From: Thermoanaerobaculia bacterium
Lineage (GTDB): Bacteria; Acidobacteriota; Thermoanaerobaculia; Gp7-AA8
Direction: 5' to 3'
Assembly: GCA_017883235.1 (NCBI GenBank)
Contig: JADGNY010000007.1
Location: forward strand, 17,546 to 81,545
DNA length: 64,000 nucleotides
Shown: positions 25,671 through 47,851 of the stretch, in pieces
Layout: every line of letters starts with the position of its first letter
How positions within the stretch are numbered: position 1 is the stretch's first letter
Program-made: the position numbers and the translations under genes
The notes under the pieces: model-generated
Told to the model about the DNA's origin: nothing
What the model saw: only the letters and a program-made list of their open reading frames with translations
Databases searched by the model: none

Positions 25671-25765
25671 CTGCGCGGCGTTGCCGCGCGTTGTCGGTTG
25701 TCTGCGCTTCGCGCGTTGTCGAAGAGCGGCCTCTGAAACGCGGCCACGCAGACAACGCCCACGCC
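25669..25765. repeat. Family 3 element, short copy 3
   Basis: GACTGCGCGGCG...GCGTTGTCGGTTGTCTGCG...CGCAGACAACGC, starting at the stop codon of the M28 fusion gene. Confidence 0.65.
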
Positions 25766-25862
25766 AGCGCCGCATCACACCTCAATGCGTGGTACTGGCT
25801 TCTTCGAGACGGTCGACACGCGCCCGTAGGTTGGAAAACGCTTCTTCAAAGGTGCGCGAAGT

Positions 25863-26204: not shown

Positions 26205-26225
26205 CGCGTGAGTGTACCTCGGCTC

Positions 26226-26702: not shown

Positions 26703-26715
26703 GACGTGACTCCTG

Positions 26716-27234
26716 TTACTTCATGTCGCCCATGAGCGTGGTCACGCCGCAGGCGATGCGAGGACCGGCGTTGCCGGCAGGCTGCGAGGTCAGATCGTCC
26801 GGATTGCCGTGCAGGACGATGGCGTGGCCGACCACGCCGTTCGCGCCGGTATTGATCGTGATCGAGTGCGTCGTGAAGCGGGCGTGAACTTCGCCCTTGT
26901 CATCCGCGGTGACGTTGCCGAAGTCACCGGCGTGGTGAGACACCGCGTCCGGCGCGCCGTGGACCATGCCGCCGGGATTGAAGTGGCCGCCGGCATTCGC
27001 GGCGTCGTTGCCGCAGTCGCCCTTCTCGTGGACGTGGAAACCGTGGACGCCGGGGGGAACGCCGGTGAGATCGGCGACGACTTCGACGCCGTCATCGCCG
27101 GCACTCTGGAAGTGAACGACGCCTTTCGCGGTCGAGCCGCTGGTCGGGTCGAGCGTGGCCATCGCCATCGGTCCTTTGCTGTGGGCACATGCGGCGAAAA
27201 CGAGTGCGAACGGGATCACCAGAAGTTTTTTCAT
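26716..27234 (-). CDS. sodC: Cu/Zn superoxide dismutase
   Basis: Signal peptide, then HGFHVHEKGDCG and GGHFNP...HAGDFGN motifs. Confidence 0.9.
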   Translation of the reverse strand: MKKLLVIPFALVFAACAHSKGPMAMATLDPTSGSTAKGVVHFQSAGDDGVEVVADLTGVPPGVHGFHVHEKGDCGNDAANAGGHFNPGGMVHGAPDAVSHHAGDFGNVTADDKGEVHARFTTHSITINTGANGVVGHAIVLHGNPDDLTSQPAGNAGPRIACGVTTLMGDMK

Positions 27235-27278
27235 ATTGCCTCCTCTTGCAAGATCCAGACGATTCTATGACGGACCGG

Positions 27279-28712
27279 TCACTGCGACCATGCCGCGATC
27301 TTTTTTCCGAGCGATCCGAGCCACCCTTTGGCCACGTCCTGGTAGTACGTCGAAGCCGCTTTCTGCAAGGCGTCGGCCAGGGATGGGTAGGGGGAAATGA
27401 GCTGCGCGAGCTGTGCCACGGTGACCTTCTTCTGCCTGGCCAGGACGAGCGTTTCGATGAGGGTGGAGGCGTTGGCGCAGAGCGCGTGCGCGCCGAGGAT
27501 GCGGCCCCGCTTGTCGCAGACGAGCTTCACGAATCCCCCGGTCGTTCGATCGACCACGGCGCGGTCGACCTCGGCCATCTCCACGCTGTACGTGCGGATG
27601 CTCTCCGCGCCATGCGCCGCGATCGCTTCCGCTTCCGTCATCCCGATGTGCCCGACCTCGGGGTCGGTATAGAGCCCCCACGGAACGTTGTCGTAGCTCA
27701 CCGGAGAACGGCCGGGAAAAAGCATGTTGCGCACGAGCTTCACCGCCTCGTACGCGGCCACGTGCGTGAACTGCATGCCGCCGTGGACGTCGCCGCAGGC
27801 CCAGATCCGCGGCACCGAGGTCTGGAGATACTTGTCGACGGTGACGAAGCCGCGGTTCGTCTTCACCCCCGCCGCTTCGAGTCCGAGGTTCTCGGTGTTG
27901 GCCCGGCGGCCGCTGGCGACGAAGATCTCGTCGACGCGCACCTCCATCGTCTCGCCGATCTTGTTCTCGATACGGACGACTTTCTTCCCGTCCTCGGCAC
28001 GCACCGACTTCGCCGCCCAGCCGCTGCGGATCACGATCCCCTCCTCGGAGAGAATCGTGCGGATGCGGGCGATGACGTCGGCATCCTCTTTGTTGACGAT
28101 CTCGTCGAGCATTTCGACGACGACGACGACCTCGCTGCCGAAACGCCGGAAGAGCTGCGCGAACTCGATGCCGATGTAACCGCCGCCAAGAATCAAAAGC
28201 GATGCCGGGAAGGAATCCTGGTTCAGAAACGACACGTGGTCGAGAAAGCCGTTCTCCGCGAGCCCTTCGACCGGCGGGATGGCGGTCCGGGTGCCTGTGG
28301 CGATGACGATGTCTTTCGCGGCCAGCCGCCGGCCATCGACGTCGACCTCGCTACGCGACGCGAGCGTGGCCTTGCCGAAGATCACCTCGATGCCGAGGGC
28401 GCGGAACTTTTCCGGATCATCGTGATGCTCGATGGCGTGGCGCTGCGCGCGCATCGAATCCATCACCGACTTCGGCGTCACGCGCGCCGTCCGCGGCTCC
28501 AGGCCGTAGGCATCGGCATGCTGCATCTGGTGGACGAGACGCGCCGTGGCCACCAACGCCTTGGTCGGCACGCAGCCGGTCCAGAGACAGTCGCCGCCCA
28601 GCTTCTCGCGCTCGATCAGCGCAACCTTGCGGCCGAGGCGCGCGCAGCCGGAGGCGGTAACCAGTCCGGCCGTGCCGCCGCCGATGACCACGACGTCGAA
28701 TGATTCAGGCAT
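27279..28712 (-). CDS. FAD-dependent pyridine nucleotide-disulfide oxidoreductase (dihydrolipoamide dehydrogenase/mercuric-reductase-like)
   Basis: VVVIGGGTAG, the redox-active GGDCLWTGCVPTK motif, and a C-terminal dimerisation region. Confidence 0.85.
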   Translation of the reverse strand: MPESFDVVVIGGGTAGLVTASGCARLGRKVALIEREKLGGDCLWTGCVPTKALVATARLVHQMQHADAYGLEPRTARVTPKSVMDSMRAQRHAIEHHDDPEKFRALGIEVIFGKATLASRSEVDVDGRRLAAKDIVIATGTRTAIPPVEGLAENGFLDHVSFLNQDSFPASLLILGGGYIGIEFAQLFRRFGSEVVVVVEMLDEIVNKEDADVIARIRTILSEEGIVIRSGWAAKSVRAEDGKKVVRIENKIGETMEVRVDEIFVASGRRANTENLGLEAAGVKTNRGFVTVDKYLQTSVPRIWACGDVHGGMQFTHVAAYEAVKLVRNMLFPGRSPVSYDNVPWGLYTDPEVGHIGMTEAEAIAAHGAESIRTYSVEMAEVDRAVVDRTTGGFVKLVCDKRGRILGAHALCANASTLIETLVLARQKKVTVAQLAQLISPYPSLADALQKAASTYYQDVAKGWLGSLGKKIAAWSQ

Positions 28713-28766
28713 GCGGGGATATTAGCGGAGCCCAGACAAGAGTGCCTGTGCGCACACCTGGCCTAC

Positions 28767-28971
28767 CTGTCATCCTGAGCCGCCGGAGCTGCGAGTCGCG
28801 AAGCGATGAAGCAGCGTAGGACGGTCGAAGGACCCCCAGACTGAAACCAGGGAAGGGTGGTGGAAAGTGGACAGCCGCCGCCCCGTCCGGGTTGCAGGGA
28901 GGGGGTCCTTCGACCGTCCTGCGCCGCGCAATCGCTCCGCGATTACGCGGCTCCGGCGGCTCAGGAGGACA
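28767..28971. repeat. MITE-like element, family 1, copy C (long-arm variant)
   Basis: The left arm is as in copies A, B and D. The right arm is a near-full reverse complement (…GGGGGTCCTTCGACCGTCCTGCGCCGCGCAATCGC…GGCTCCGGCGGCTCAGGAGGACA). Confidence 0.8.
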
Positions 28972-28981
28972 GGTAAGCGCC

Positions 28982-30412
28982 TCACCGCGAGTACGCGTCG
29001 ATGATCCTCTCGATCGCCTTCCGGCACACCCGGCAGAACCCCACCTCGTCCCGCGTGAACATGATGCAATCGAGCTCCGGCCGGTAGAGGCCGCGCGGCT
29101 CGTACTCTGCCCCTTCGAACGCCCCCACCTTGCCGGCGAACTTCTGGCCGCCGAGGAATTGCGTCTCCCAGGCGCGCTCGTCGGTGAAGAGCTTGTCCAT
29201 CTCCGACTCCGGCGCGTTCGTGGCGCGAAGGTGGGCACGCTCCTTCTGAATCGCGAGGCTGTGCTTCTCGAATGTCTCTTTGTCCCACGGCGTCGGCAGC
29301 GGTGTCGATGGCTGCATTAGAGAGTCGACGAGGTCGTGCCACTTCACCTTGGCCGGATCGTGGAGCGCCGTCACGTTCGGCTCCCACGGCTCCGGATGCT
29401 CGCTGCTGCCGCTCGTCGTGTACGACACCGGCGACGTGTAGTACTCGTCCGCCAGCGCGGCGAAATGGTGGCCGAACTCGTGGACGAACACGTACTCCGC
29501 GAAGGCGCTGTCGACGCAGGCGGTTGCCTGGTCGTTGAAGATCCCGCCGCCGCCGTACTGCTTCTCGTTGACCAGGATCTCGATGAAGTCATACGGAGCG
29601 GACGACGCCACATCGCGCATGCGGTGATCGTCGAGCGTGAGCATGTAACGCTCGGAATCGAAGATGTTGTACTGCACGCCGGTCATGGTGCGGCGGTTGT
29701 CGCTCGTGCGCGGACGGTGCACGCCGCTGGCCGGCTCGGCCAGATCGAGCGCGCGGACGTTGAAATCCTTGCGGCGGCTCTTGAACGGCTCGGTGTCGAA
29801 CAGCTTGCCGATCATCCGCGCCACATCCTTATGAAACTTCGGCAGCTCGCTCTCGGTGTAGCCCTCGCCGATCACCAGGATGTCCACCTTCTCCGACGGC
29901 GGCCCGTTCTCGATCACGTTCCAGACATGCCCGGCCGGCTTGCGCTCGGAGGGATTGACGAATCGCGACGACGGATCGATCAGCGTCGACCAGAGCTGCT
30001 GGAAGGCGCCGTTCGCGTCGCGTTTCTTGACGACGAGTTGTACCGGATGCTTCGGCCACGGGAACCGCACCGACTCGGCGAACGTTCCCGCGCGCTGGTT
30101 GGCCTCGTCCGTCGTCTGCCACTCGCCGAAAACCGAGGCGAAGCCGCGCGTGTAGATGGCCTGGTTCGTATCGCGGTCGATGACCTCGAAGTAGTAATTG
30201 CCGAGGTTGAGCGTGTCGATCAGGCGCGTGCGGCTGCCCGGCCAGGGACCGTCCGAGACGACCGAATCGAGAGCGATGATCTCCTCGCCATGATTGCCCG
30301 TGTGGAAGTAGTTCACCCGCATCGTCCGATCCAGAAACATCTCGTCGAATGGCGCGGCGAAGGCGGAGGTGGCCAGCAGAAACAAGGTGGTGACGAAAAC
30401 GAGCGTGCGCAT
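28982..30412 (-). CDS. Peptidase M64 (IgA-peptidase-like) family protein
   Basis: Start at MRTLVFVTTLFLLATSAFA (30412). Has the HEFGHHFAALADEY metallopeptidase motif. Confidence 0.8.
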   Translation of the reverse strand: MRTLVFVTTLFLLATSAFAAPFDEMFLDRTMRVNYFHTGNHGEEIIALDSVVSDGPWPGSRTRLIDTLNLGNYYFEVIDRDTNQAIYTRGFASVFGEWQTTDEANQRAGTFAESVRFPWPKHPVQLVVKKRDANGAFQQLWSTLIDPSSRFVNPSERKPAGHVWNVIENGPPSEKVDILVIGEGYTESELPKFHKDVARMIGKLFDTEPFKSRRKDFNVRALDLAEPASGVHRPRTSDNRRTMTGVQYNIFDSERYMLTLDDHRMRDVASSAPYDFIEILVNEKQYGGGGIFNDQATACVDSAFAEYVFVHEFGHHFAALADEYYTSPVSYTTSGSSEHPEPWEPNVTALHDPAKVKWHDLVDSLMQPSTPLPTPWDKETFEKHSLAIQKERAHLRATNAPESEMDKLFTDERAWETQFLGGQKFAGKVGAFEGAEYEPRGLYRPELDCIMFTRDEVGFCRVCRKAIERIIDAYSR

Positions 30413-30452
30413 GTAGCGATTGTAGACTGCGAAGATGCGCCCGCACCCCGCC

Positions 30453-30647
30453 GTCATCCTGAGCCGCCGGAGCCGCGTAATCGCGAAAGCGATTGCGCGG
30501 CGCAGGACGGTCGAAGGACCCCCAGCCTGTAACCCGGGTTGGGAGGGGGCCGGCGAAAAAAAGCCGCCCCCTCCACTCCCGCGGTTGCAGCCGGGGGTCC
30601 TTCGTCGTCCTCAGCCCCTACCGGGGCATCGGCGACTCAGGATGACA
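30453..30647. repeat. MITE-like element, family 1, copy D
   Basis: Same family. Its right terminus ...CTCAGGATGACA contains the only plausible start codon (30642) of the downstream VWFA gene. Confidence 0.8.
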
Positions 30648-35625: not shown

Positions 35626-36245
35626 ATGAAAGCCACACTCCTGGCCTCAATGCTCGTCAGCGCAACGAGTTTCGCCACCTACCAACTGACCCACGCCGTC
35701 ACCGTCGATCCCTCGTTCTCTCCCGACGGCGCCCGCATGGTCTACATCGTCGTCGTCGCCGGCAAAGAGCAGCTCTTCACCGCCGATGCGGATGCCACGA
35801 AGCCGATCCAGATCACGCACGACGACTGGAACCACGAAGACCCCGCCTGGTCTCCCGACGGCCGCAAGATCGCATTCGTGTCGTTGAACCCGACGGCAAA
35901 CGCATGGCCTTCCGCCGCATCCTCGGCGAACTGAATTCCGAGGTCTTCATCGCCAACGCCGACGGCTCCGACGCGAAGAACCTGACGAACAACCCATCCT
36001 TCGACGGCTGGCCGAGCTGGTCGCCCGACGGCTCCGAGATCGCCTTCGCCTCGAACCGCCGCGCCAACTACCAGATCTTCGTGATGAAGCCCGACGGCTC
36101 CGACGTCCGCCTCGTCGCCAACACCGAAGGCCGCGCCACCGCCCCCATCTGGTCTCGCGACGGCAAGTCGATCTACTTCCCCAACTGCCGCAAAGTCGAC
36201 CTCGGCACCGACTGCCAGATCTTCGTCGCCCCCGCCCCACATTGA
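35626..36245 (+). pseudogene. PD40/TolB-like beta-propeller repeat protein with a frame break near 35878-35885
   Basis: ORFs 35626-35934 and 35904-36245 both carry SPDG...IAF PD40 repeats. Continuity (…RKIAFV / VEPDGKRMAFRRI…) needs one extra nucleotide. Confidence 0.65.
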
Positions 36246-36324
36246 CGCCCCCGCGACGTGCGGCTATCCTCTCCCCCGCCCCGGAAATAGCGAGGCAGCA
36301 CAGCTCGTTGAGACGATCCCAAAC

Positions 36325-36400
36325 AGGCGCTTAGCTCAGTCGGTAGAGCATCACCTTCACACGGTGGGGGTCAGCGGTTCGAGTCCGCTAGCGCCTACCA
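36325..36400 (+). tRNA. tRNA-Val (anticodon CAC), CCA encoded
   Basis: Hand-folded cloverleaf: acceptor AGGCGCT/AGCGCCT, D arm GCTC-AGTCGGTA-GAGC, anticodon arm TCACC-TTCACAC-GGTGG, T arm AGCGG-TTCGAGT-CCGCT. 76 nt. Confidence 0.9.
36380..36394 (+). repeat. att-like direct repeat, proximal copy (inside the tRNA-Val 3' half)
   Basis: CGAGTCCGCTAGCGC, identical to 39463-39477. Confidence 0.7.
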
Positions 36401-36538
36401 ATCTAAACCGCTCACGCCGCTCAGGTTAGCCATACCGAGCGGCGTTTCCATTTTCTGATTCGGCCCTCAAAGTGTTCGCAGATGACGCGTCGGATCGGTG
36501 CTCGCGTCAGTTTGTGTCCGGTGTGTCGGGGTAGCGAT

Positions 36539-36567
36539 TTGCGGTACTTGCGTCACTCCTGTAGTAT
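36539..36567 (+). promoter_or_regulatory. Sigma-70-like promoter candidate for the lasso precursor
   Basis: TTGCGG - 17 nt - TAGTAT, about 35 nt upstream of the GGAGG Shine-Dalgarno at 36589. Confidence 0.4.
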
Positions 36568-36602
36568 GTTGGTCAAGGTATCCCATTTGGAGGTATGCGC
36601 CC

Positions 36603-36710
36603 ATGAAGAAACAGTTGCCGGTGAAACGTGTCACGAGAATCGGCCCCGCTGTTCGACTCACGAAGAATGCACGCGGATCTCAGACCGAAGGAAGTCACGG
36701 CCGCACCTAA
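36603..36710 (+). CDS. Candidate lasso-peptide precursor (35 aa)
   Basis: MKKQLPVKRVTRIGPAVRLTKNARGSQTEGSHGRT. GGAGG lies 9 nt upstream. The leader has G-x5-T-x ending LTK. Glu is 8 residues after the predicted cleavage site. The ORF lies 38 nt upstream of the cyclase gene. Confidence 0.55.
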   Translation: MKKQLPVKRVTRIGPAVRLTKNARGSQTEGSHGRT

Positions 36711-36748
36711 GCTTCTCGATCTGATCGCTTCATCCCCAGAAGGCTGCC

Positions 36749-38461
36749 ATGCGGCTGCTCGCGCAGATAACCGCAACCGATGAAACGCTTACAATCAGTG
36801 CGGCCGGTGATGGTGTGGTCGCCACACCGACGCCTACGGGCTGGATCATGGGTAGGTGCCCGGTTGATAGCGATGCGCTCGTACGTGATGCGGCATCTCA
36901 CCTTGACCGTGTGGGACCGATCATTTGTTATGACGCCGGGCCTGTGCAGCACCTTCAGTTCTTTGCTCACCCCCTGGGTCGTGGCACGTTCTTCTTCGCG
37001 CGAAATGGCACCTCGACTTTCATCGCGACCGATTTGGCTGATCTAGTTGCGCTCACACGCCGCACAAGGCTCGATGAGCGCATAGTGGCGAACTACTTCG
37101 CGTCGCGCCGTCGAACACCCTGTGACACGAGTACGTTCTTGGTCGGCATTGAACAAGTACCGCCCGCTCACGTACTGCGCATCACCACTCAATTGCAACA
37201 AATTACGTCGTACTGGTGCCCCACCGACGATCCTGAGTATGAATGCCTTACTCGGCCTGATGCTGTCAGGCGATTGCGTGATGCGATTAATGATGAACTT
37301 CAGGTTGGCACGAAGAGTCGCGCTACCGCGGTCTTGGTCAGTGGTGGGATCGATTCCGGTGTCGTTGCAAGCATGACGTGCGCGGTCAAGCCCGATGTGT
37401 CACTTGTCTGCATTCGAGGGCCCGTGGTGGCGAGCGAGGAGATTGCTTTGCAGGACGCCTTGGTAGCGCACCTAGGTCGGCCGGCAATCATGTACGAGGC
37501 AACGCCTCGCCTTTTGCTACGTGCACTGCGTGAGCGGAATCGTAATGCGCCCGCACCTTCTGGCGGTCTGTTTACGGGGCTCTATGCCGATCTGTTGGCG
37601 ATGTTAGCAACCAACGGCATTGATGTGGTGGTTGGTGGCGAGGGTGGCGATGAGCTGTTCAATCCGCATCCGGATATCGTCGCTGATCTTTTGCAGCACC
37701 ATCAATATGCCGCGGCGTTTGAGGCGGTGAGTTGGTATGCGTCGCTTCGCTCAGAACGCACCGGTTGGCGCGTGTATCGTGAGTATGGGCATGATGCGCT
37801 TCGTTCGGCGCCAGTAAGGCGAAGTGATGAGGATCGCTTGTTCCTTCGGCGGCTCCTGGGTGACTTTGCGGCGAATGTGGAAGCGACGTTTGTGTCATAT
37901 CGTCGCGACCGTGATGGCGTCCGTGGACTGGTGTCACGTCATGCCTTTGAGGCATTGCGCGATCTGTGCGAGATTCCGTTCTATGAGGCGTGGGCACCGC
38001 CTGGAGTCGCTGCCGTTCTGAATCCGCTCGGGAGTGTTGGTGTCGTTCGCGCCGCGATGTCGTTGCGCCTGGAGGATCGGGTCAAGGCTGGCGCGGGTGC
38101 TTGCTCGAAGTTACTTCTTCGTGATGCTGGGATTGGTGTTGTTCCGAGAGATGTGCGTGAGGCACCAAAGATTGGGATTGGCAATCTGTTGTGGCAGATG
38201 ACGAGTGGGCAAGCGCTGGAGCTGGTGGACGTCTTAAGCACAGCGGTTTTGCGTGACGTCGGGATCCGGTCAGACCCCGTGTTTATCGATCCGCGCAATG
38301 TCCCTGGAAGCGTGAGCTTGTATTGGTCGCTGCTTCTTGTCCTAACGTTGTGGTATCGGGAGGTTCAGGAATGGTTAACTCAGCCGCTTCCTACGATGAT
38401 GCCGATCTCTTCTATGTTGCAACCCGTGTCAGCGTTCTCGACGACCACAGTGGTGATGTGA
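36749..38461 (+). CDS. Lasso-peptide cyclase (asparagine-synthetase-like lactam synthetase, C protein)
   Basis: 570 aa. Has the LVSGGIDSGVVAS PP-loop. Lacks the N-terminal Cys nucleophile (starts MRLLAQ). Assignment uses its context with the B protein. Confidence 0.8.
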   Translation: MRLLAQITATDETLTISAAGDGVVATPTPTGWIMGRCPVDSDALVRDAASHLDRVGPIICYDAGPVQHLQFFAHPLGRGTFFFARNGTSTFIATDLADLVALTRRTRLDERIVANYFASRRRTPCDTSTFLVGIEQVPPAHVLRITTQLQQITSYWCPTDDPEYECLTRPDAVRRLRDAINDELQVGTKSRATAVLVSGGIDSGVVASMTCAVKPDVSLVCIRGPVVASEEIALQDALVAHLGRPAIMYEATPRLLLRALRERNRNAPAPSGGLFTGLYADLLAMLATNGIDVVVGGEGGDELFNPHPDIVADLLQHHQYAAAFEAVSWYASLRSERTGWRVYREYGHDALRSAPVRRSDEDRLFLRRLLGDFAANVEATFVSYRRDRDGVRGLVSRHAFEALRDLCEIPFYEAWAPPGVAAVLNPLGSVGVVRAAMSLRLEDRVKAGAGACSKLLLRDAGIGVVPRDVREAPKIGIGNLLWQMTSGQALELVDVLSTAVLRDVGIRSDPVFIDPRNVPGSVSLYWSLLLVLTLWYREVQEWLTQPLPTMMPISSMLQPVSAFSTTTVVM

Positions 38462-39054
38462 TTCTGCTCGACGAATGTCGTGGTGAGTATTGGAGGCTCG
38501 CGTCGTCGACGTATGCACTTCTAGAACTGCTGCAGCGTTCTCCTCTCTGCTTTGGTGAGATTGCCGGTCTGGAGCTCGTTTGCGATGACCTCGTGTTGCT
38601 GATCAATGCTGGTCTGGTGTCGCGGCGTCGGGCATTTGCCCGGCCACGGTTGGTTGCTGTTGCTGGTTACGCGGTGTTGCATCTTTGGTTTCAATTTCGG
38701 CTGCGCGTATTCGGTTGGCGCGTTGTTGAGGCTGAGAGGCGGCTTTCGGTACGGCGTGTGGCGTTCGCGCCTCACATCATGGTGATATCGGAGGCGCTGT
38801 TGAGTGCTGCGCGGTTTGCGATGCTTGTACCGTTTGTGCGTGCGGATTGCTTACCTCGTGCCTTGTCGTTCCATCGGCTGCTTCGGTTTCGCGGTCATGA
38901 GGCGGTTCTCCGCATAGGCGCAGTATCATCTGACTTTGAGCCACACATTTGGGTAGAGGTGGGTGATGAGCGCATTGATTCTGGTGCTGACGATCAGGCG
39001 CTGCGATGGTTTCGTCCTCTTGAGCACACCATAACAACAACTGGTGATCCTTGA
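38371..39054 (+). CDS. Lasso-peptide B protein: PqqD/RRE-like N-domain fused to a transglutaminase-like leader peptidase
   Basis: Start chosen at MVNSAASYDD (GGGAGG 7 nt upstream). The C-terminal half has ADCLPRALSFHRLL...EPHIWVEV...D, matching the Cys-His-Asp pattern of McjB-type proteases. Confidence 0.8.
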   Translation: MVNSAASYDDADLFYVATRVSVLDDHSGDVILLDECRGEYWRLASSTYALLELLQRSPLCFGEIAGLELVCDDLVLLINAGLVSRRRAFARPRLVAVAGYAVLHLWFQFRLRVFGWRVVEAERRLSVRRVAFAPHIMVISEALLSAARFAMLVPFVRADCLPRALSFHRLLRFRGHEAVLRIGAVSSDFEPHIWVEVGDERIDSGADDQALRWFRPLEHTITTTGDP

Positions 39055-39103
39055 TCGCAAGAATCCGAAATTCTAACGACCTGGGAACGCCAGCTCCAGC
39101 AAT

Positions 39104-39298
39104 CTATGCAAGAGCGCGGATGACGGCCTCCAACGCTTCGGTCCTCGCTCGCGCGTAGCGCTCAGTCGTCCTGGTGCTGGTGTGACCGAGCAGGTCGCGC
39201 AGCGTGAAGCTGTTAATGCCTTTGCTTGCGGAGGTGCTTGCGAAGGTGTAGCGTTGGTCGTGGAAGCGCGGCACTCGACACCTGCTGCAAGCGCACGG
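39104..39298 (-). pseudogene. Tyrosine recombinase (phage integrase) C-terminal remnant
   Basis: Translates to ...RVPRFHDQRYTFASTSASKGINSFTLRDLLGHTSTRTTERYARARTEALEAVIRALA*. It has no start codon and an upstream in-frame TAA. Confidence 0.7.
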
Positions 39299-39319
39299 TT
39301 ACGCTGAAGCCACGGTGTC

Positions 39320-39379
39320 AGACCTTCGTTTTTCGTAGCCTCGCAACAGATTGAGAAAGCATGCACTTACGGACGATCC
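39320..39379. repeat. 60-bp direct repeat, copy 1
   Basis: AGACCTTCGTTTTTCG..CTCGCAAC..ATTGAGAAA.CATGCACTTACGGACGA.CC. Roughly 85 percent identical to 41011-41070 by hand alignment. Confidence 0.75.
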
Positions 39380-39462
39380 CAAAGTGATACCTGAGCGACG
39401 TTCGGTTATTCGCATTTACGAAACGTCTCAGAACGAAGCCCTGGCCCCGCCACATCTTCCCA

Positions 39463-39477
39463 CGAGTCCGCTAGCGC
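39463..39477 (+). repeat. att-like direct repeat, distal copy
   Basis: CGAGTCCGCTAGCGC, identical to tRNA-Val positions 36380-36394. Confidence 0.7.
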
Positions 39478-39738
39478 GACGACGCGGTGTCGGTGTGCTG
39501 GACGCAATGCTAGGGAGGTAGGTGACACGCCCTACTATGGCGCGCATTTCCTCGTCGAGCTCTTGCAGGTACCGGCTGATCTGGGTCTGTAAGACCCTTC
39601 CATACCTGACGAGTTGTGGTAGGGCGTACTGCGCTTGTCCTGGTATGAGGCGTGGTGTGATGGGCATAGGAGTGTCTCCTTGAAGGGAGAGTGTGCCGCA
39701 GGAGCGGGAGTCTGTCGCGTATGGACCGGCTCTTGGGT

Positions 39739-40830
39739 TTAGGGCGTGCCCGGGTCTTTCTTGGCGTCCTTCTTCGGGTCGTCGGCTTTCGGCTTGTCCG
39801 CCGATGGTGGTGGCGTGGCGATTTGGTCGACGTGGTACTGGTAGGGTTTCGTGAAGCGATCATCGAGGTAGAGGGGCGTAAGGGGGCCGTCGCCCGGGAG
39901 CGGGCCGCAGGGACTGCGGTGCTGCTCGGTGATGGCGGTGAGGGTGTGTTGGACGAAACGCGTCTCAATGGCGAGCGTGATGCTCTCCGGTAGGTTGGTG
40001 GACGTCGTCTTTGTTGGTTTGAAGTCGTTGAGTTGGAAGCGGTCGAACTCTGCGGCGGCCGCGGTCGGCGTCGCAGCTGGCGTTGCTGTGCTGGTGAGCC
40101 CAAGTGCTTTGCTGAGGACGGCGCTGATGGGGAGGACGTTGAGGATTGCTTGTGCTGTTTGGTTGTCGGCGGTTGCTGTCCCATTGGTGAGGCTGCCGTC
40201 TTTGTCGAGGCTGGCGTTGGCGGTGCTGCTGCCAAGCCACGGCATACGGGTGTTGAAGTAGTACGGTTTGGTGTAGTCGGTGAAGAAGTCACTTGTGCGG
40301 GTGTTGCTGGCAAGGACGACGTTGCGCTGCTCGACGTCGGTGACGATGAGGCTCTTCGTGACGTTGATCCCTGTCCAGGCCTCGTTGATGGCCTTGAGTT
40401 TCGTCGAGTCCATTGTGGGTTGTGCGTCTGTGGGTTGTGCATCGGCTAGCGCTTTTTGGAGGTTGTCGAGTAGTTGGAGTGACTTGATCGCTGGGCACTT
40501 CGAGGGATCTTCGGGAGTAGAGCATGGGTCGGACAGCTCTGAGCGGCGGGCAATCTTTGTTTGCTTGATGGTTTTGGTCGTTGGTGCTGGAGTGCCTGCT
40601 TTGGTTGTTGGTTGTTGTTCGCGGTACGTGTCTTCGCGGGTGAGTGCGTAGAGTGGTTCGAGCCAGATAGTGTCTTGTCTGCAGACGGCGCGTTTGGGGT
40701 AGAACGGGATACCGTCGAGGTGGGTGTTGTCGGCGATAGGGTTCGTGTTGCCGGTGGTGATACGTGCGGTGCCGAGGCACGCGGTGGTGAGGAGCGTGAG
40801 GAGGAGGACTGCGGGTGTGTACGTGCGCAT
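39739..40830 (-). CDS. Hypothetical lipoprotein (Thr/Pro-rich)
   Basis: Start at MRTYTPAVLLLTLLTTAC (lipobox), with AGGAGAA upstream. G+C looks lower by eye. No recognisable family. Confidence 0.55.
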   Translation of the reverse strand: MRTYTPAVLLLTLLTTACLGTARITTGNTNPIADNTHLDGIPFYPKRAVCRQDTIWLEPLYALTREDTYREQQPTTKAGTPAPTTKTIKQTKIARRSELSDPCSTPEDPSKCPAIKSLQLLDNLQKALADAQPTDAQPTMDSTKLKAINEAWTGINVTKSLIVTDVEQRNVVLASNTRTSDFFTDYTKPYYFNTRMPWLGSSTANASLDKDGSLTNGTATADNQTAQAILNVLPISAVLSKALGLTSTATPAATPTAAAAEFDRFQLNDFKPTKTTSTNLPESITLAIETRFVQHTLTAITEQHRSPCGPLPGDGPLTPLYLDDRFTKPYQYHVDQIATPPPSADKPKADDPKKDAKKDPGTP

Positions 40831-41010
40831 TGGGTTCTCCTGCATGAGGTAATTGCGTTGCTGTAGTTCTTCAGCGAGTGCTGTCATTCTTGTTGGACGG
40901 ACGAGGTGGGGGTATTTCGCGGGGCCGATGGAATTGGTCTCTCAAGGAACGGATGAGTGAGTGTCCCCCGCGGGGCGATTGACTCGCGGCCTGGGGATCA
41001 CACTGGGGGG

Positions 41011-41070
41011 AGACCTTCGTTTTTCGGCGGCTCGCAACCAATTGAGAAAACATGCACTTACGGACGAGCC
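41011..41070. repeat. 60-bp direct repeat, copy 2
   Basis: See 39320-39379. Lies 30 bp upstream of the truncated LLM gene fragment. Confidence 0.75.
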
Positions 41071-41101
41071 AAAAAGGGCACCAGCGGCGTTGTGTGATTC
41101 G

Positions 41102-41518
41102 ATGCGTGCCTACCGCACCGGCTTCTCCACGAACGGCGTACTCGACAAACCGCACGCCATCCTCGCGCTCTCGGTCTACTGCGCCGACACGGAGCAGGCA
41201 GCGCAGCGACTGGCCTCATCCGTGCTGCTCTCGTTTGTCCAGCTCCGGACCGGACGCCCAGGCCGGATGCCGAGCCCGGACGATGCGATGGCCCACGTCT
41301 TCACGCCCGAGGAGCAGCCGCTCGTCGCGTCTTACAGGAGACTGCAGATCGTCGGCACGCCCGACCAGGTCCGCGCTCGCATCGAGGAGATCGCCACGCG
41401 GACGCGGGCTGACGAGGTGATGATCGCCACCCACGCCTACGACCCGGCGGCGCGCGTTCGATCGTACGAGCTGGTGGCACAGGCCTTCGGCCTGCCGGAG
41501 ACATCGATGACGGCTTGA
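41102..41518 (+). pseudogene. 3' fragment of an LLM-class (luciferase-like) oxidoreductase gene
   Basis: The 138 codons are collinear with the C-terminus of the intact gene at 51991-53016 (constant offset 11498 nt, 4 aa differences). The 5' two-thirds are missing. Confidence 0.85.
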
Positions 41519-41552
41519 CTGCAGCCGGCTAGATGTGACCCCAACTTGCTCG

Positions 41553-43310
41553 CTACTGAATGCCAACCTTGTCATAGGCAGCATCGATCGCGTCGATCTT
41601 CTGCTGCGCGACGTGAAGGTCCCCACCCCAGATCGTCTTGGCGATGCTCTTCATCGTCGCGCGCGTGTCCAGGAAGGTCGCGAAGACAGAGAGGCGCGTC
41701 AACGTGTAGTAATACAACTGCGCGACATCCGTGACGCTGAACGCGCGCGCGCCGTTTGCGTCGGTCGCGGTGAGGATATTGTACGCGGCCTTGTTGTGAA
41801 TATTGCTGTTCGTATGCACGCCGCCCGCGTCGTCATTCGCACTCTTATTGACGTACTTGGACTTGTGATCCGGGTCGCCCGTTCGAGTAGGATCGCTGAA
41901 ATCGCGAAGCGGACCGCCGCCCGCGGCGAGAGTCGTGCCGATCTCCCACGACCACGTCGATAGGTCATTCGGATCGCGACCCTGCGCCTTCGCGTTCGTG
42001 TAATTCGCGATGATCACGCCGAAGATATCGCTGAAGGACTCGTTTAGAGCCCCCGACTCGAAAATGTATTTCAGCCCCGCGGTTGACTCAGTGAGGCCGT
42101 GCGTCAGCTCGTGCGCGATGACGTCGAGGTAGCGTGAAAGGCTGTGCGGCGTTCCGGCCGTGTCGAACAGTTGGCCGTATAGCATCTGTTTGCGAAACCA
42201 GACCGCGTTGCGCCAGTTCGCGGGCGCGCCCGCCGGCAGCCTATAGGTACAGTTGACGATGGAAATGAGCTCCATCCGGTTGCCGTCGACGCCGTTCCGC
42301 TTGAGGACGTCATTGTAAAAATCGAAGACGCGGGTCGCGTTCACGTGTGCGGAGACGGCCGCGGTATTGGCGTTGGCAAAGTCCGCGGCGGCGTTCGACA
42401 CGAGCGTGCCCGGCGCCGTCGGCGCATTGATGTCGTCGAATTTGAGGTCGAACGTACGGAGCATTCGGACCGGGTCGCGCATTTCGAAGACGCCGCCGTT
42501 GATCAGGCCGTCGAAGGTCTGGTGAGCACTAAGCTCGTCGATCCCTTCACAGTGCGTCGGCAGATCGAACCAGGGCGTTGCGCTGTAGTAGAGGACGATC
42601 TCTCCGGAATGCGCGTCGACGAGGTACGTCATGTCGAGGAGCAGCATCCGTGGAGAGGGATCGAGGCCGTGTCCGCGCGCAGTCTCCGCCGACTGACGAA
42701 GCGCGTCCGGAGCGGCGCCGATATGCTCGAATTCGTAGACGAGGTGCCATACGTCGTCGTGGTCGTGGAAGTAACAGATCGTCGGCGCCGGCACTCCCGC
42801 CAGGCTGGTCGGTTGGACAGCGCACAACGCCGCGATCCTGTCGCGAGCATCCGCGGGGCTCAGCGTCGCAACCGCGTCAACGTTTGGCATCTCGGCGACG
42901 TGCGCGTCGATCGAGATGAGCTCGCGCTCCTGAGTCAGCTCGACGCTCGCCTTCCCGCCGAGGATCGGGACGTTGTTCGCGGACTGCTCGAAATGGATGA
43001 CGCGCGTATTCATCAGCGGCGACTCCTGGACGGTTGCCGCGCGCAGGTCCGGCATCACTTCCGGCTGCTCGGGAGCCGTCGCCGCGGCGAGCGCCGGAAA
43101 CTCGTCCTGGCCGGACCACAGCGTGTCCATGTAGTGCCGCGCCGCAGCTTCGTCGGTGTGAAACGTAATCGACGGCGCCTCGGGTGCGACCGCCGCCAGC
43201 GTAGCTTCCTCAACGGTCATGCCACTCGCGAGTGCGCCGAGGGCGATCGGCCCCACTGACTGCATGGCCTGGTCGATTGCGTGGAAGTGATAGCGCGTGA
43301 AACCCGGCAT
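41553..43310 (-). CDS. M4 (thermolysin-like) metallopeptidase without a recognisable signal peptide
   Basis: VIAHELTHGLTE (HExxH) and GALNESFSDIFG (third zinc ligand). Has a pro-region-like N-terminus. Confidence 0.85.
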   Translation of the reverse strand: MPGFTRYHFHAIDQAMQSVGPIALGALASGMTVEEATLAAVAPEAPSITFHTDEAAARHYMDTLWSGQDEFPALAAATAPEQPEVMPDLRAATVQESPLMNTRVIHFEQSANNVPILGGKASVELTQERELISIDAHVAEMPNVDAVATLSPADARDRIAALCAVQPTSLAGVPAPTICYFHDHDDVWHLVYEFEHIGAAPDALRQSAETARGHGLDPSPRMLLLDMTYLVDAHSGEIVLYYSATPWFDLPTHCEGIDELSAHQTFDGLINGGVFEMRDPVRMLRTFDLKFDDINAPTAPGTLVSNAAADFANANTAAVSAHVNATRVFDFYNDVLKRNGVDGNRMELISIVNCTYRLPAGAPANWRNAVWFRKQMLYGQLFDTAGTPHSLSRYLDVIAHELTHGLTESTAGLKYIFESGALNESFSDIFGVIIANYTNAKAQGRDPNDLSTWSWEIGTTLAAGGGPLRDFSDPTRTGDPDHKSKYVNKSANDDAGGVHTNSNIHNKAAYNILTATDANGARAFSVTDVAQLYYYTLTRLSVFATFLDTRATMKSIAKTIWGGDLHVAQQKIDAIDAAYDKVGIQ

Positions 43311-43319
43311 GATCCACTC

Positions 43320-44873
43320 CTATGTGTACTTCTTGATGATGGTTTGCACATCGGCCTGGTAGAAAAAGTTTGTGTGCATAACGACCGATTGCGCGGTGCT
43401 GCTCGATCCGAAGCGATAGTTGTTCACGTTCGCCACCGGAAGCCACTGATCGAACACTTCGGCACCGGTGAACGGCACCACCATGTCGTTCGCCGTCCCA
43501 AAGATCTGGTTCACGTTCCAGTCGAGGTACTCCTTCAGGAGTCCTTGCGTCGCGTCGTAATTCGCATGAAGGACCACGAGCTGTCTGATGTTGGTCATCG
43601 TCGGCCCATTGAGGCCGGCGAGAAACGTGTTGACTGCCGGGTCGGGGTTGAGCGCGAGGATGCTCGGAAGTTTCACAGCGCCGTGTGCCAGGACGCGAAG
43701 GAGTCCCACGATGACGCGCAGCACGACGCCGGCCTGCCCGAGAAGCGGAATCGAGCCGATGGCCGAATAGATGTTGAGGAGCCGGTTCACGTTCTCAAAG
43801 CGTGCGAGCTGCGATCCTTGATTCGCGCCGGCGACGAAAATCGCCGTTCCGACGGATTGAATCTTCTGCTTGGCAAGGGCGTGAAGCGAATTGTCCTCGA
43901 ACATCGCGCGAGTGACCAGTCCGCCGCGGCTATGGCAGATCATGTCGACGTCGAGGTTGTCCGGCAAACGCGTGAGGATGTCGTTCGCGTTCTCGAGCGG
44001 TGTCTTCGAGACCGTGTAATGATCCCAGCCGATGATGTTCGCGTACTTCGTCCGAAGATACGTGAGCAGCGGATGGCCGGGCGTGCCGAAAGCAGCGAAT
44101 GCGCCGGTCGTCGAGCTGAAGATGCCGTGAGTGAGCAGAAGTGTTTTCCCCTGCAATGCCGAGAGATCACCGAGCACGGGGAAGTTGTGCTCTGGATCGA
44201 AGAGGCGAAACGCCTCCGTCTTCGCTTTCGCTTCGACCTCCCGCGCGATCCAGGCGATGATGCGCTCGACGGCACCATCGATGAGATCCTGCACGATGTC
44301 GGTGACGAGCTTGAAGCGGAAGAATCGCATCACCGCGCCAGCGAACGATGACGCGCTGAATCCCGCCGGCGAGACACCGACCATTGACGTCAGCGCGGAC
44401 TGCGGCACATGAAATCGTAACGGAGCGGCTGCTGGCTCGGCGGCGAGTCCCACGACGTCCGGCGTGTTTCCGGGCGCGGCTGCGCCGGCGTTCACCGGAA
44501 CGAACCACTGGACGACATCGCCGTTTCGAACCATGAGCAAAAGACCTTCGCCCGGTTCGGGTGTCGCCTCGAGCTCGACATGCGCGTCATCCGATCCTGG
44601 CGCGCTCAACGTTGCCACCGGCGCGCCGGCTATGCCGAGCGGCGCCGCCATCGGCGTGACCTGCATCGTCTGGAACGCCGGCGCGAGCTCGTTCGCTGTG
44701 ATGGCGTCGTCCCATACCCCCTCACCGGGCGTGAACGCTTCCGCCGACAGGCTGGGTGGCGCCTCAACGGTTTCAAAGAGCAGCGGCACACCGGGAGCGT
44801 TGACCGTGATCGCACTCCCGTCATCGAAGCGAAGGGTTTGCGGCGCGATTACACCGGTAGTGATGGATGCCAC
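43320..44873 (-). CDS. Hypothetical protein with a C-terminal alpha/beta-hydrolase (lipase/esterase-like) domain
   Basis: LLLTHGIFSS... and a DMICHSRGGLVTR nucleophile-elbow-like motif. The N-terminal ~230 aa are unassigned. Lies 9 nt upstream of the M4 gene. Confidence 0.55.
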   Translation of the reverse strand: MASITTGVIAPQTLRFDDGSAITVNAPGVPLLFETVEAPPSLSAEAFTPGEGVWDDAITANELAPAFQTMQVTPMAAPLGIAGAPVATLSAPGSDDAHVELEATPEPGEGLLLMVRNGDVVQWFVPVNAGAAAPGNTPDVVGLAAEPAAAPLRFHVPQSALTSMVGVSPAGFSASSFAGAVMRFFRFKLVTDIVQDLIDGAVERIIAWIAREVEAKAKTEAFRLFDPEHNFPVLGDLSALQGKTLLLTHGIFSSTTGAFAAFGTPGHPLLTYLRTKYANIIGWDHYTVSKTPLENANDILTRLPDNLDVDMICHSRGGLVTRAMFEDNSLHALAKQKIQSVGTAIFVAGANQGSQLARFENVNRLLNIYSAIGSIPLLGQAGVVLRVIVGLLRVLAHGAVKLPSILALNPDPAVNTFLAGLNGPTMTNIRQLVVLHANYDATQGLLKEYLDWNVNQIFGTANDMVVPFTGAEVFDQWLPVANVNNYRFGSSSTAQSVVMHTNFFYQADVQTIIKKYT

Positions 44874-45349
44874 GTAGGACCTCCTCTCGTCACGAGATAA
44901 GAGTGACGAAACCGGCGGTTTCCCCTACCGATTGCGTAAACGATTGGTCACAGAGTGGGAAAGCGGCCCGGGGCGTCACTCCTAATTCAGAGAGGTTAGC
45001 TTCGCTCCCAATCATGATCACGGCAGGATTGACCTGCCTCGGCTTTCCCTACGGCACCGCTCTGGGTGTCGCGACCCTTGTCGTTCTCGGTCGGCCGTCG
45101 GTGTCGGCACTCTTTGATCCTCCCTCTGTCCCAGGAAGCACCTCTCCGCACGTCTAACTCGTCGACCGGATGGGGTCAGGTCGAAAGTCGAAAGTGCCGA
45201 TGCCTGCATGGAGTACTTGGTGCAATCTGTCTTTCGGCACTTTCGACTTTCGACCAGACCCCATCCGCGCAACTCGGAAAACGGAACCAGCGAGATAGAA
45301 CCGGAGGAGCCGAGCGGCCCGCACCCTGGCGGAAGATCAGTGGAGGAGT

Positions 45350-47752
45350 TCAGTGCGTCGCCGCCCTCCGGCGAGATTGTTGATACGCGAAAACAGACAC
45401 AGTGCTGATCCTTGCACCGGCGCTGGTCGATGTCTTGAGGCGGAAGACGAAGAGGTCGGCGACGTCAGGGGTGAAGGTTGGATTCTCGACGTCGGTGGAT
45501 GAGAGGTCGGCAGCAGAGCCGGGAGGACGGCGAATCAGCGTCCATTCCCATGCCGTAGCTGCTCTCGGCGCGGTACCGAGCAGGCGCGTGATCCCGGTCA
45601 GGCCCGACGCAGCGTCGACGGTGGCGGCGGCGGCGATCGCCGGCACGCCCTTGATGATCGCGTGGTTGTGGGAATCGGCGACATAGATGTTTCCGCTGCT
45701 GTCGACCGCCACTCCCGAGGCCGAATAAAATTGGGCCGCACTACCGATGCCGTCGGCGTTGCCGAATGAGCCAGCGGTCCCGGCGAACGTCGTCACCACA
45801 CCGGCCGGCGTGATCTTGCGGATCGTATTGGCGTCGGCGACGTAGATATTGCTGCTGCTGTCGGCCGCCACTCCCGTGGGCGAATAGAATTGGGCCGCAC
45901 TGCCGGTGCCATCGGTGCTGCCGAATGAACCAGCGGTCCCGGCGAGCGTCGTCACCGCACCGGTCGGCGTGATCTTGCGGATCATCTGGTTGCCTTCGTC
46001 GGCGACGTAGACATTGCCGCTGCCGTCGACCGCCACTCCGCGGGGGTACTTGAACCGGGCCGCGCTGCTGGTGCCGTCGGCGCTGCCGGACGAATTGGCC
46101 GTTCCGGCCAGCGTCGTCACCACGCCGGCCGGCGTGATCTTGCGGATCGTGTAGTTCCAGGTATCGGCCACGTAGACGTTGCCGCTGCCATCGACCGCCG
46201 CTCCATAGGGCGAATAGAATCGGGCCGCACTGCCGGTGCCATCGGCGCTGCCCCGTGAGCCGGCCGTTCCAGCCAGAGTCGTCACCACCCCGGCCGGCGT
46301 GATCTTGCGGATCGTGTGGTTGGACGTGTCGGCGACGTAAACGTTGCCGCTGCCGTCCACCGCCACTCCATGAGGGTTATTGAACCTGGCCGCACTGCCA
46401 GCACCATCGGCGTTGCCCCTCGAGCCGGCCGTTCCAGCGAGCGTCGTCACCACGCCGGCGGGCGTGATCTTGCGGATCGTCAGGTTGCCTTCGTCGGCGA
46501 CGTAGCTGTTGCCGCTACCGTCGACCGCCACTCCATAGGGGCTATCGAACCTGGCCGCAGTGCCGGTGCCATCGGCGCTGCCCGGCGAAGCGGCCATTCC
46601 GGCGAGCGTCGTCACACCACCGGCCTGCGCGATCTTGCGGATCGTGTGGTTGGAGGTATCGGCGACGTAGATGTTGCCACTGCCGTCGACCGCCACTCCA
46701 TGGGGGTCATGGAAATAGGCCGCGGTGCCATCGGCGCTGCCCGGCAAACCGGCCCATCCTGCCAGCGTCGTTACCGCGCCCGCCGGCGTGATCTTGCGGA
46801 TCTGGTGGTTGGAGGTATCGGCGACGTAGACGTTGCCGCTGCCGTCGGCCGCCACTCCATTGGGGATAAAGAACCGGGCCGCGCTACCGGTGCCGTTGGC
46901 GCTGCCATACGAACCTGTCATTCCTGCCAGCGTCGTCACGACGCCGGCCGGGGTGATCTTGCGGATCGTGTAGTTCCACGTATCGGCGACGTAGACGTTG
47001 CCGCTGCCGTCGACTGCCACTCCCGCGGGTTGATTGAACCTGGCCGCACTGCCGGTGCCGTCGGCGTCGCCGGACGAACCAGCGCTTCCGGCGAGCGTCG
47101 TCACCACGCCCGACGGCGTAATCTTGCGGATCGTGTCGTTGAATGTATCGGCGACGTAGACGTAGCCGCCGCCGTCGACCGCCACTCCATGGGGGATGAA
47201 GAACCGGGCCGCACTGCCGGTGCCGTCGGCGCTGCCAGACGAAGACGCCTTTCCGGCGAGTGTCGTCACCACGCCCGCCGGCGTGATCTTGCGGATCGCT
47301 TCGTTATCGGAGACATAGACGTTACCGCTGCCATCGACGGCCACTCCAAAGAGGCCGCCGAACCGGGCCGCACTGCCGGTGCCGTCGACGCTGCCGGATG
47401 AACCGGCGGTTCCGGCGAGCGTCGCCACCACACCCGACGGAGTGATCTTCCGGATCGTGTGGTTGGCGGTATCGGCGACATAGACGTTGCCGCTGCGGTC
47501 GATCGCCACCGCTTCCGGCGCATTGAATCGCGCGGCGCTTCCCGCGGCGTCGATGCTGTCGCATCCTCCGGGCGAGCCGGCTAAGTGCGTGAAGGTCAGC
47601 GGCTGGGCGCCAGCCGGCGCGGCGCAGGCGAGAAAAGCCACCAAGCCGGCGAGTTGAACGCACGTGATTGAGAACGCGGCCAGCTTCAGTCCGGCAAGAA
47701 GACGGTGGAGAACGGGCAGGGTCGCCGCTTCCGACTTTCGACAGAGCGTCAT
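45350..47752 (-). CDS. NHL-repeat beta-propeller protein (about 14 repeats) with a C-terminal Ig/PKD-like domain
   Basis: The repeat unit GSADGTGSAARFxxPxGVAVDGSGNVYVADxxNHTIRKITPxGVVTTLAG is iterated. GGGAG Shine-Dalgarno upstream of the ATG. Confidence 0.85.
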   Translation of the reverse strand: MTLCRKSEAATLPVLHRLLAGLKLAAFSITCVQLAGLVAFLACAAPAGAQPLTFTHLAGSPGGCDSIDAAGSAARFNAPEAVAIDRSGNVYVADTANHTIRKITPSGVVATLAGTAGSSGSVDGTGSAARFGGLFGVAVDGSGNVYVSDNEAIRKITPAGVVTTLAGKASSSGSADGTGSAARFFIPHGVAVDGGGYVYVADTFNDTIRKITPSGVVTTLAGSAGSSGDADGTGSAARFNQPAGVAVDGSGNVYVADTWNYTIRKITPAGVVTTLAGMTGSYGSANGTGSAARFFIPNGVAADGSGNVYVADTSNHQIRKITPAGAVTTLAGWAGLPGSADGTAAYFHDPHGVAVDGSGNIYVADTSNHTIRKIAQAGGVTTLAGMAASPGSADGTGTAARFDSPYGVAVDGSGNSYVADEGNLTIRKITPAGVVTTLAGTAGSRGNADGAGSAARFNNPHGVAVDGSGNVYVADTSNHTIRKITPAGVVTTLAGTAGSRGSADGTGSAARFYSPYGAAVDGSGNVYVADTWNYTIRKITPAGVVTTLAGTANSSGSADGTSSAARFKYPRGVAVDGSGNVYVADEGNQMIRKITPTGAVTTLAGTAGSFGSTDGTGSAAQFYSPTGVAADSSSNIYVADANTIRKITPAGVVTTFAGTAGSFGNADGIGSAAQFYSASGVAVDSSGNIYVADSHNHAIIKGVPAIAAAATVDAASGLTGITRLLGTAPRAATAWEWTLIRRPPGSAADLSSTDVENPTFTPDVADLFVFRLKTSTSAGARISTVSVFAYQQSRRRAATH

Positions 47753-47851
47753 ATCCGCGTACTCCCTTCTGACAGGAAACTACACCGGTCGAGTCTCGGT
47801 GTCTGTGACGAACCCGAGGAGAGCTCAGCGGGGCTGGTCGAACTGCCTCGT

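Follow-up and report, generated by a model that had tools for sequence, protein, structure and literature searches.

The 64,000-nucleotide stretch of contig JADGNY010000007.1 from a Thermoanaerobaculia bacterium, hereafter the window, carries three co-directional genes directly 3' of a tRNA-Val gene, in a small islet with a lower G+C content than its flanks. They encode a 35-residue candidate precursor peptide (A), a 570-residue asparagine synthetase homologue (C), and a 227-residue protein (B) that appears to combine a leader-binding RRE domain with a leader peptidase. The coordinates and base composition agree with the initial annotation, which had read these genes as a lasso peptide gene set in the order A-C-B, and the lasso reading itself was borne out by domains, catalytic motifs, and a precursor signature that are conserved in eight loci. 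We put the probability at roughly 80% that positions 36603–39054 form an intact, self-contained class II lasso cluster, residing on a decayed tRNA-Val islet (Table 1). The lasso family is a rare one, and the system is of a known kind.

Table 1. Features of the putative lasso islet and of the DNA to its right (window coordinates).
Feature	Position	Strand	Details
tRNA-Val (anticodon CAC)	36325–36400	+	ARAGORN; Rfam RF00005, 66.3 bits; integration target, left border
15-nt direct repeat CGAGTCCGCTAGCGC, left copy (putative attachment, att, core)	36380–36394	+	Within tRNA T-arm and acceptor stem
Islet left arm	36401–36602	+	Hairpin CCGCTCAGG...GAGCGG, then T-rich run, directly 3' of tRNA
A, putative lasso precursor, 35 aa, MKKQLPVKRVTRIGPAVRLTKNARGSQTEGSHGRT	36603–36710	+	GGAGG at 36589–36593, 9 nt 5' of ATG
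C, lasso cyclase candidate, 570 aa	36749–38461	+	PF00733, 4.5e-16, 59.9 bits (cut-off 21)
B, putative fused RRE and leader peptidase, 227 aa	38371–39054	+	Overlaps C by 91 nt
Tyrosine recombinase (integrase) C-terminal remnant, 56 aa	39104–39274	-	PF00589, 1.1e-6, 28.9 bits (cut-off 27.1)
R1, first copy of 93-bp direct repeat	39320–39412	+	Near islet right end
15-nt direct repeat CGAGTCCGCTAGCGC, right copy (putative att core)	39463–39477	+	
Second low-G+C stretch (59.8%)	39478–41101	.	Ends in R2
R2, second copy of 93-bp repeat	41011–41101		81% identity to R1

Precursor peptide and its family signature

Gene A, a 35-codon open reading frame (ORF) with a good Shine-Dalgarno sequence, lies where the initial annotation had placed it and was confirmed as a precursor gene by the comparison of eight distinct loci, namely the window, L001–L006, and L091, with G+C contents of 51–66%. 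All locus counts given below refer to these eight. In each of them, a small ORF located directly 5' of C has the same leader-core signature (Table 2), which reads ...G-x-A-x-x-L-T-[KR] in the leader, followed by [NS]-x6-E-x-x-[RHN]-G-[RH]-[ST/R] in the core, and the gene order A-C-B is kept in every retrievable family locus (L001–L006 and L091). Locus L087, a candidate second occurrence, was left out of the counts as not independent, because it is 100% identical to window positions 36367–41170 and so comes from the same organism or sample.

The leader of A is MKKQLPVKRVTRIGPAVRLTK, with Gly at position -8 and Thr at -2, and its predicted core is NARGSQTEGSHGRT, with Asn at position 1 and Glu at position 8. 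Across the family, LT[KR] directly precedes the predicted core and Glu8 is invariant (8/8 loci each), residue 1 is Asn in seven loci and Ser in L004, and Gly12 is invariant in all eight, with one of Arg, His, and Asn always on either side of it (positions 11 and 13). In its strict form, LT[KR][NS]x6Exx[RHN]G[RH][ST], the motif is present in 7/8 loci, the exception being L003, which has Arg at the end and continues. No other occurrence of this motif was found in a six-frame translation of 720 kb, including 80 unrelated Asn-synthase loci. These controls are ordinary Asn-synthase loci from a contig profile scan with the C alignment; the scan was discarded as a family search, its back-translated motifs being generic (GGEGGDE) and the family not recovered, and its yield was reused as controls only. 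Between the A genes of the window and L001, two loci with about 66% nucleotide identity, codons 7–35 differ by nine synonymous and two non-synonymous changes. In L003 (5690–5851), the precursor runs past the usual stop (…SRGHRPPRGKFLFLRVQYLSNKKQGS) and may be an extended or tailored variant or the result of a lost stop codon.

Table 2. Leader ends, predicted rings, and predicted tails of the family precursors.
Locus	Leader end	Ring	Tail
Window	...RIGPAVRLTK	NARGSQTE	GSHGRT
L001	...RIGPAARLTK	NARGSQTE	GSNGRT
L002	...DLGAAVQLTK	NSRGNNAE	GNRGRT
L003	...DLGAAVKLTK	NASGTSSE	ASRGHR...
L004	...ALGSAVRLTR	SARGTAAE	GGRGRS
L005 / L006	...GKAHKLTK	NGSKGNVE	NSRGHS
L091	...QLGAAIKLTK	NGCGKASE	SSRGRS

It is reported that lasso leaders have Thr, or rarely Ile or Val, at the penultimate position (PMC10368454), and that lasso peptides contain a ring of seven to nine residues joining the N-terminal amine to the side chain of Asp or Glu (PMC11664905; PMC8498205). 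The sequence of the window cluster contains Thr(-2), an acidic residue 8, a Cys-His-Asp peptidase, an RRE domain (with moderate support), and a Cys-less PP-loop cyclase homologue. Cleavage after Lys/Arg(-1) and a ring from Asn/Ser1 to Glu8 are proposed because this is the sole assignment that fits all eight precursors, so that the predicted ring starts with Asn and not with Gly. Cores starting at Ile13, Gly14, or Gly25 of A were considered and rejected, as they have no Asp or Glu at positions 7–9. Gly(-8) and Thr(-2) of the A leader agree with the 'G-x5-T-x' portion of a leader motif common among lasso peptides.

Leader-binding protease B

The C-terminal part of B had been recognized as a McjB-type leader peptidase by its Cys-His-Asp pattern, and this assignment holds. 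CLPRALS, PHIWVEV, and a following Asp are all present, and B matches Transglut_core3 (PF13471; 1.4e-14, 54.4 bits, cut-off 26) as well as the NCBIfam model NF033537 lasso_biosyn_B2 (50.6 bits, cut-off 33). The triad of the transglutaminase core, Cys160, His192, and Asp203 (227-residue numbering), is invariant in two B family alignments, and BLASTP aligned B with the B protein of the benenodin cluster (7e-8), including the Cys and His residues.

The N-terminal third of B, with the putative RRE domain at about residues 10–90, is moderately supported as RRE-like. The B family profile matches the solved lasso RRE protein TfuB1 (6jx3_B, E = 8e-4) across the LLDExxGxYW strand region. A Foldseek search with the AlphaFold2 (AF2) model of B gave TbiB1 (5v1v_A) and TfuB1 (6jx3_B) as the top PDB matches (probability 1.0, TM 0.55–0.62), with further matches to the RRE domains of the RiPP enzymes LynD/TruD, ThcOx, TigE, SuiB, and CteB. 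The initial annotation had expected significant matches of B to both transglutaminase-core and PqqD profiles; the former was obtained, but the direct comparison with the PqqD model fell short. The curated B2 matches, the invariant triad, and the likeness to TfuB1 and TbiB1 suggest that B is a fused RRE-peptidase of the McjB type, with moderate confidence in the RRE half. The fold and the LLDxxxGxYW strand motif are common to TfuB1 (6jx3), TbiB1 (5v1v), and the N-terminal ~80 residues of B. However, TfuB1 and TbiB1 are stand-alone B1 proteins of split-B actinobacterial and thermophile systems, whereas the corresponding region here is fused to B2, and the identity is 16–18%.

The ATG at 38371 is the best start for B, because GGGAGG lies 5' of it, a stop in L001 is located just before the equivalent ATG, and the N-terminus is conserved in the B frame. 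The stretch SYDDADLFYVATR is identical at 13/13 residues in the B frame of the window and L001, while the overlapping C frame diverges. The alternative GTG start at 38458 (198 amino acids), called in the Logan record, was rejected, as it would remove the conserved first RRE strand.

Cyclase candidate C

C begins with MRLLAQ and lacks the Cys nucleophile, its PP-loop motif SGGIDS lies at residues 198–203, and no GATase domain was matched in it by Pfam. In contrast, the housekeeping asnB (13781–15616, minus strand) starts with MCGIYG and contains GATase_7 and Asn_synthase domains; the sequences agree with the initial annotation on both genes. SGGxDS is invariant in the C family alignment, and among NCBIfam models C scores best on those of the albusnodin-type macrolactam cyclase (1.3e-19) and of the lasso cyclase (5e-11). 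The assignment as a lasso cyclase stood in part: C belongs to a Cys-less clade that is always found beside such a B gene, but it scores far below the curated NCBIfam lasso-cyclase cut-offs.

A profile search with C among 1.84 billion representatives yielded 53 proteins at E ≤ 1e-30 and then a continuum of generic relatives, and the close relatives among 5.8 billion clustered proteins number seven for C and seven for B. A Met-Cys start occurs in none of 52 C-clade representatives and in 14 of the 96 next-nearest proteins. Grouping with ordinary AsnB had been named beforehand as the outcome that would speak against a cyclase; instead, C falls in a small Cys-less clade, whose nearest outside relatives are mostly Cys-less as well. 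The next tier is mixed and includes P0110, which passes the lasso-cyclase model (627 bits vs. 525), P0088 and P0090, which pass or approach it, and the true Asn synthases P0097 and P0100. By tblastn against a plasmid collection, C retrieved the cyclases of annotated astexin-type (Asticcacaulis excentricus) and benenodin (Caulobacter) clusters, and hhalign of the C family with the benenodin-cluster cyclase gave a probability of 98%. A PDB sequence search with C returned beta-lactam synthetase, AsnB, and similar proteins only, with no chain named as a lasso cyclase. As judged from these profile comparisons, the C clade is small and outside both curated cyclase families.

Proposed maturation and alternative explanations

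From the sequences we infer the cleavage site, ring, threading, plug residues, and production of the peptide, which may proceed as follows. The leader, with the motif [LI]-G-x-A-x-[KRQ]-L-T-[KR], would be bound by the RRE domain of B. The transglutaminase-like Cys-His-Asp domain of B would cleave after Lys(-1), guided by Thr(-2), and free the alpha-amine of Asn1. C may then adenylate the Glu8 side chain in an ATP-dependent manner, and the eight-residue Asn1–Glu8 isopeptide ring would close around the pre-folded tail. The predicted product is NARGSQTEGSHGRT minus H2O, with computed monoisotopic masses of 1456.677 Da for the linear and 1438.666 Da for the dehydrated form. In the tail, GSHGRT, Gly12 would lie within the ring, and the basic residues 11 and 13 would serve as the upper and lower plugs, respectively.

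Several observations speak against a functional lasso cluster of this kind. The tail has six residues and no aromatic one, which makes stable threading uncertain, and the A leader lacks the common YxxPxL motif. For B, the direct NCBIfam PqqD match is non-significant (E = 0.032), the AF2 model is moderate, with a mean predicted local distance difference test (pLDDT) score of 65 (72–78 in the N-terminal domain), and its Foldseek matches have E-values between 6e-3 and 2e-2. C reaches 41.8 bits on the lasso cyclase model NF033535 (cut-off 525) and 70.3 bits on the albusnodin/ikarugamycin macrolactam cyclase model NF033561 (cut-off 300), both far below the curated cut-offs, and scores about equally on the generic AsnB model TIGR01536 (51.6 bits). 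A sigma-70-like promoter was not found, the promoter and terminator scan being not above the shuffled background, and the cluster, whose expression is a prediction, sits on a decayed element with no exporter or immunity gene.

The near-equal scores of C on generic AsnB and cyclase models would also fit an ordinary amidotransferase, accompanied by an unrelated transglutaminase-like protein and a chance ORF. However, C has neither the Cys nucleophile nor a GATase match, the window has its true asnB elsewhere (13781–15616), and B scores above the curated threshold for lasso B2. All eight loci combine the A-C-B order with the precursor motif, none of the 80 control loci does, and this explanation is effectively refuted. 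Granting lasso-type genes, the product may be an unthreaded branched-cyclic lariat or may be cleaved or cyclized at another position. The 14-residue core and its six-residue, glycine-rich, hydrophilic tail may be too short and too small for locking, no aromatic or large hydrophobic plug is available, and the loop would span only two to three residues. Nevertheless, the Arg, His, or Asn residues at positions 11 and 13 around the invariant Gly12 form the pattern expected of plugs in eight loci, and Asn/Ser1–Glu8 is the sole seven- to nine-residue ring possible in all eight precursors, and we regard the lariat or a shifted site as unlikely. Arg plugs occur among known lasso peptides, and lasso peptides of 14–15 residues exist, such as xanthomonin II, sungsanpin, and chaxapeptin.

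The state of the islet raises a different doubt, namely that the cluster is a silent relic, unexpressed or non-functional. The integrase is reduced to 56 amino acids, the right att end departs from a clean tRNA 3' terminus, rearranged DNA adjoins the islet, and neither a promoter-like site nor an exporter was found. In contrast, none of the three ORFs is shortened compared with its homologues, all catalytic motifs are intact, and changes in A relative to L001 show a synonymous excess. The B-frame N-terminus is conserved within the overlap with C, the translational signals are kept, and the promoter scan was limited to the sigma-70 consensus. A relic is thus very unlikely, and an intact class II lasso cluster remains the favored interpretation.

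Comparison with known lasso systems

The window cluster resembles the class II fused-B clusters of microcin J25 (McjABCD), astexin, caulosegnin, and benenodin in Thr(-2), in the acidic core residue 8, in the RRE-peptidase fusion, and in the Cys-less PP-loop cyclase. It differs in the gene order, A-C-B instead of A-B-C, and identity is about 22–26%. The McjD-type ABC exporter, the Atxe2-type isopeptidase, and the TonB receptor of those clusters were not found here, the leader has no YxxPxL, and the core begins with Asn and has 14 residues. The astexin-type (Asticcacaulis excentricus) and benenodin (Caulobacter) clusters have an A-B-C-isopeptidase-TonB arrangement.

Metanodin, reported in 2025 from a Steroidobacterales-like soil metagenome, provided the first experimental case of Asn1 as the ring-forming residue (PMC12670498). 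Its ring closes on Asp, it was detected at m/z 1050.9996 [M+2H]2+, and nine ring-opened forms were seen in tandem mass spectrometry (MS/MS); its cluster has the classical proteobacterial A-B-C order, and the cblaster comparison includes an isopeptidase gene (PMC12670498). Metanodin shares Asn1 and Thr(-2) with the window family, and like it belongs to a kind of precursor missed by automated tools. It is a longer peptide with no evident core similarity, and in the present family Asn1 is a family trait (7/8 loci, the eighth having Ser) with a ring predicted to close on Glu8.

The family adds a sharply defined, uncharacterized group of eight precursors and ~50 cyclase representatives among 1.84 billion proteins, and it indicates that curated cyclase models and precursor finders biased toward Gly, Ala, Ser, or Cys can overlook real clusters. 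Its hydrophilic, cationic 14-residue core would be a test case for the lower size limit of threading, and the 2.5-kb module, which needs no accessory genes, would lend itself as a minimal system to engineering and to expression in other hosts. The cluster may be of use to natural-product chemists, while the understanding of lasso peptides is unchanged. A bolder proposal, which we consider speculative and rather unlikely, is that the family makes the smallest naturally threaded lasso peptides known: 14-mers with an Asn1–Glu8 ring, a two-residue loop, and Arg/His plugs around an invariant Gly. The three genes producing them would pass as a module among distant bacteria (G+C content, 42–66%) with no exporter or immunity gene, and would often settle among defense or mobile genes. 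If true, the peptide may have an intracellular or non-antibiotic role rather than that of a secreted toxin.

The tRNA-Val islet and its borders

The limits 36380 and 39477 given in the initial annotation coincide with the outermost bases of two identical 15-nt direct repeat copies, with the tRNA bordering the islet on the left and a repeat of the tRNA 3' part on the right. No third copy was found in the 64 kb with two mismatches allowed, and the chance expectation for exact 15-mer pairs in 3.8 kb is estimated at ~0.007. Positions 36401–39462 have a G+C content of 57.1%, compared with 63.7% for the whole window and 64.1% and 63.3% for the flanks. The combination of a tRNA gene, a 15-nt repeat, an integrase remnant, and a lowered G+C content supports the view that 36380–39477 is a decayed tRNA-Val-targeting integrative element acquired horizontally, in line with the decayed mobile islet originally annotated. 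The integrase remnant also matches NCBIfam Xer/integrase models; the remainder of its gene was not found in a three-frame read of the region, and it does not qualify as a functional integrase. The tRNA was the sole match in an Rfam scan of 36200–41300. Neither the islet, compared with plasmid and phage DNA, nor the B protein, compared with the plasmid collection, gave a match. A 12-nt repeat, GACGATCCCAAA (36312–36323 and 39372–39383), was rejected as a duplicated tRNA flank, as an estimated ~0.4 such pairs would arise by chance over 3.8 kb.

Known tRNA-targeting integrative islands likewise have a tRNA end, a repeat of its 3' part, a tyrosine recombinase, and a deviating G+C content. By comparison, the present islet is very small (3.1 kb), its integrase is a 56-residue remnant, its right repeat is not followed by the terminal CTACCA of the tRNA, and beyond it lie another stretch of foreign appearance and a duplicated gene fragment. 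The right repeat is followed by GACGAC, while CTACCA follows the tRNA copy. The G+C content remains low (59.8%) rightward to ~41000, and R2 adjoins a truncated luciferase-like duplicate at 41100–41528, which is 97% identical to 52598–53027, the last 430 bp of a luciferase-like monooxygenase gene (51940–53016). Since the right repeat is unclean, the G+C content stays low, and the 93-bp repeat and the luciferase-like duplicate follow, foreign or rearranged DNA probably reaches ~41100, and the clean end at 39477 implied by the initial annotation has to be given up. R1 is ~1.7 kb from R2, and the repeat and the duplicate suggest that, right of the islet, another module was inserted or the DNA was rearranged. 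Two minus-strand ORFs in this region, one of 382 amino acids (39739–40887) with a lipoprotein-like signal (…LLTLLTTACLG) and one of 79 amino acids (39428–39667), have no Pfam match, and no counterpart of either was found in any related lasso locus.

Related loci and neighboring genes

L001, the nearest relative of the islet, contains the window unit, and its sequence aligns with the left arm at 36401–36602. At 1640–1760, a degenerate tRNA-Val 3' half and a hairpin lie 5' of its A gene; no intact tRNA was detected in L001 by ARAGORN. An integrase remnant is located 3' of B at 4948–5021 (within 4875–5210), with Lys at the position of the catalytic Tyr. Since left arm and integrase remnant are both common to the window and L001, the lasso genes travel together with the element. 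A run of 11 G at ~1670 of L001 may be an assembly artefact.

The absence of exporter, isopeptidase, kinase, and tailoring genes had been noted in the initial annotation, and no ABC exporter, isopeptidase, or kinase was found among the window flanking ORFs tested. A 585-residue ORF (41553–43310) encodes an M4 thermolysin-type peptidase and no ABC transporter. The precomputed Pfam listings of the related loci contain no exporter or isopeptidase, and the family thus has no such accessory gene in common; no immunity gene accompanies the cluster in any of the eight loci, and no flanking gene is conserved across them. A metagenome scan with the B alignment gave three loci only and no new precursor.

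The lasso module seems to land in variable, defense-like regions. L005 and L006 have near-identical precursors and different neighbors: a KAP NTPase in the flank of L006, and DUF2958, a 2OG-Fe(II) oxygenase, and a helicase with a faint PLD-domain match in that of L005. In L003, an APH/choline-kinase-like gene (8512–9507) is located directly 3' of B on the opposite strand. L092 (1280–1714) contains an orphan 144-residue B2 fragment with no C gene, beside a SIR2-STAND NTPase gene.

In the window, the gene just 5' of tRNA-Val appears to carry a frameshift, which would mark a pseudogene or reflect an error in sequencing: on the plus strand at 35626–36245, two overlapping ORFs in different frames (35626–35934 and 35904–36245) both match PD40 beta-propeller repeats. 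The wider surroundings, at 22392–30457 and 41553–50053, hold many peptidases of secreted type and many beta-propeller proteins, among them an M4 thermolysin-like peptidase, an M28 protein with PDZ and PD40 domains, an M64 peptidase, and two large proteins with NHL repeats.

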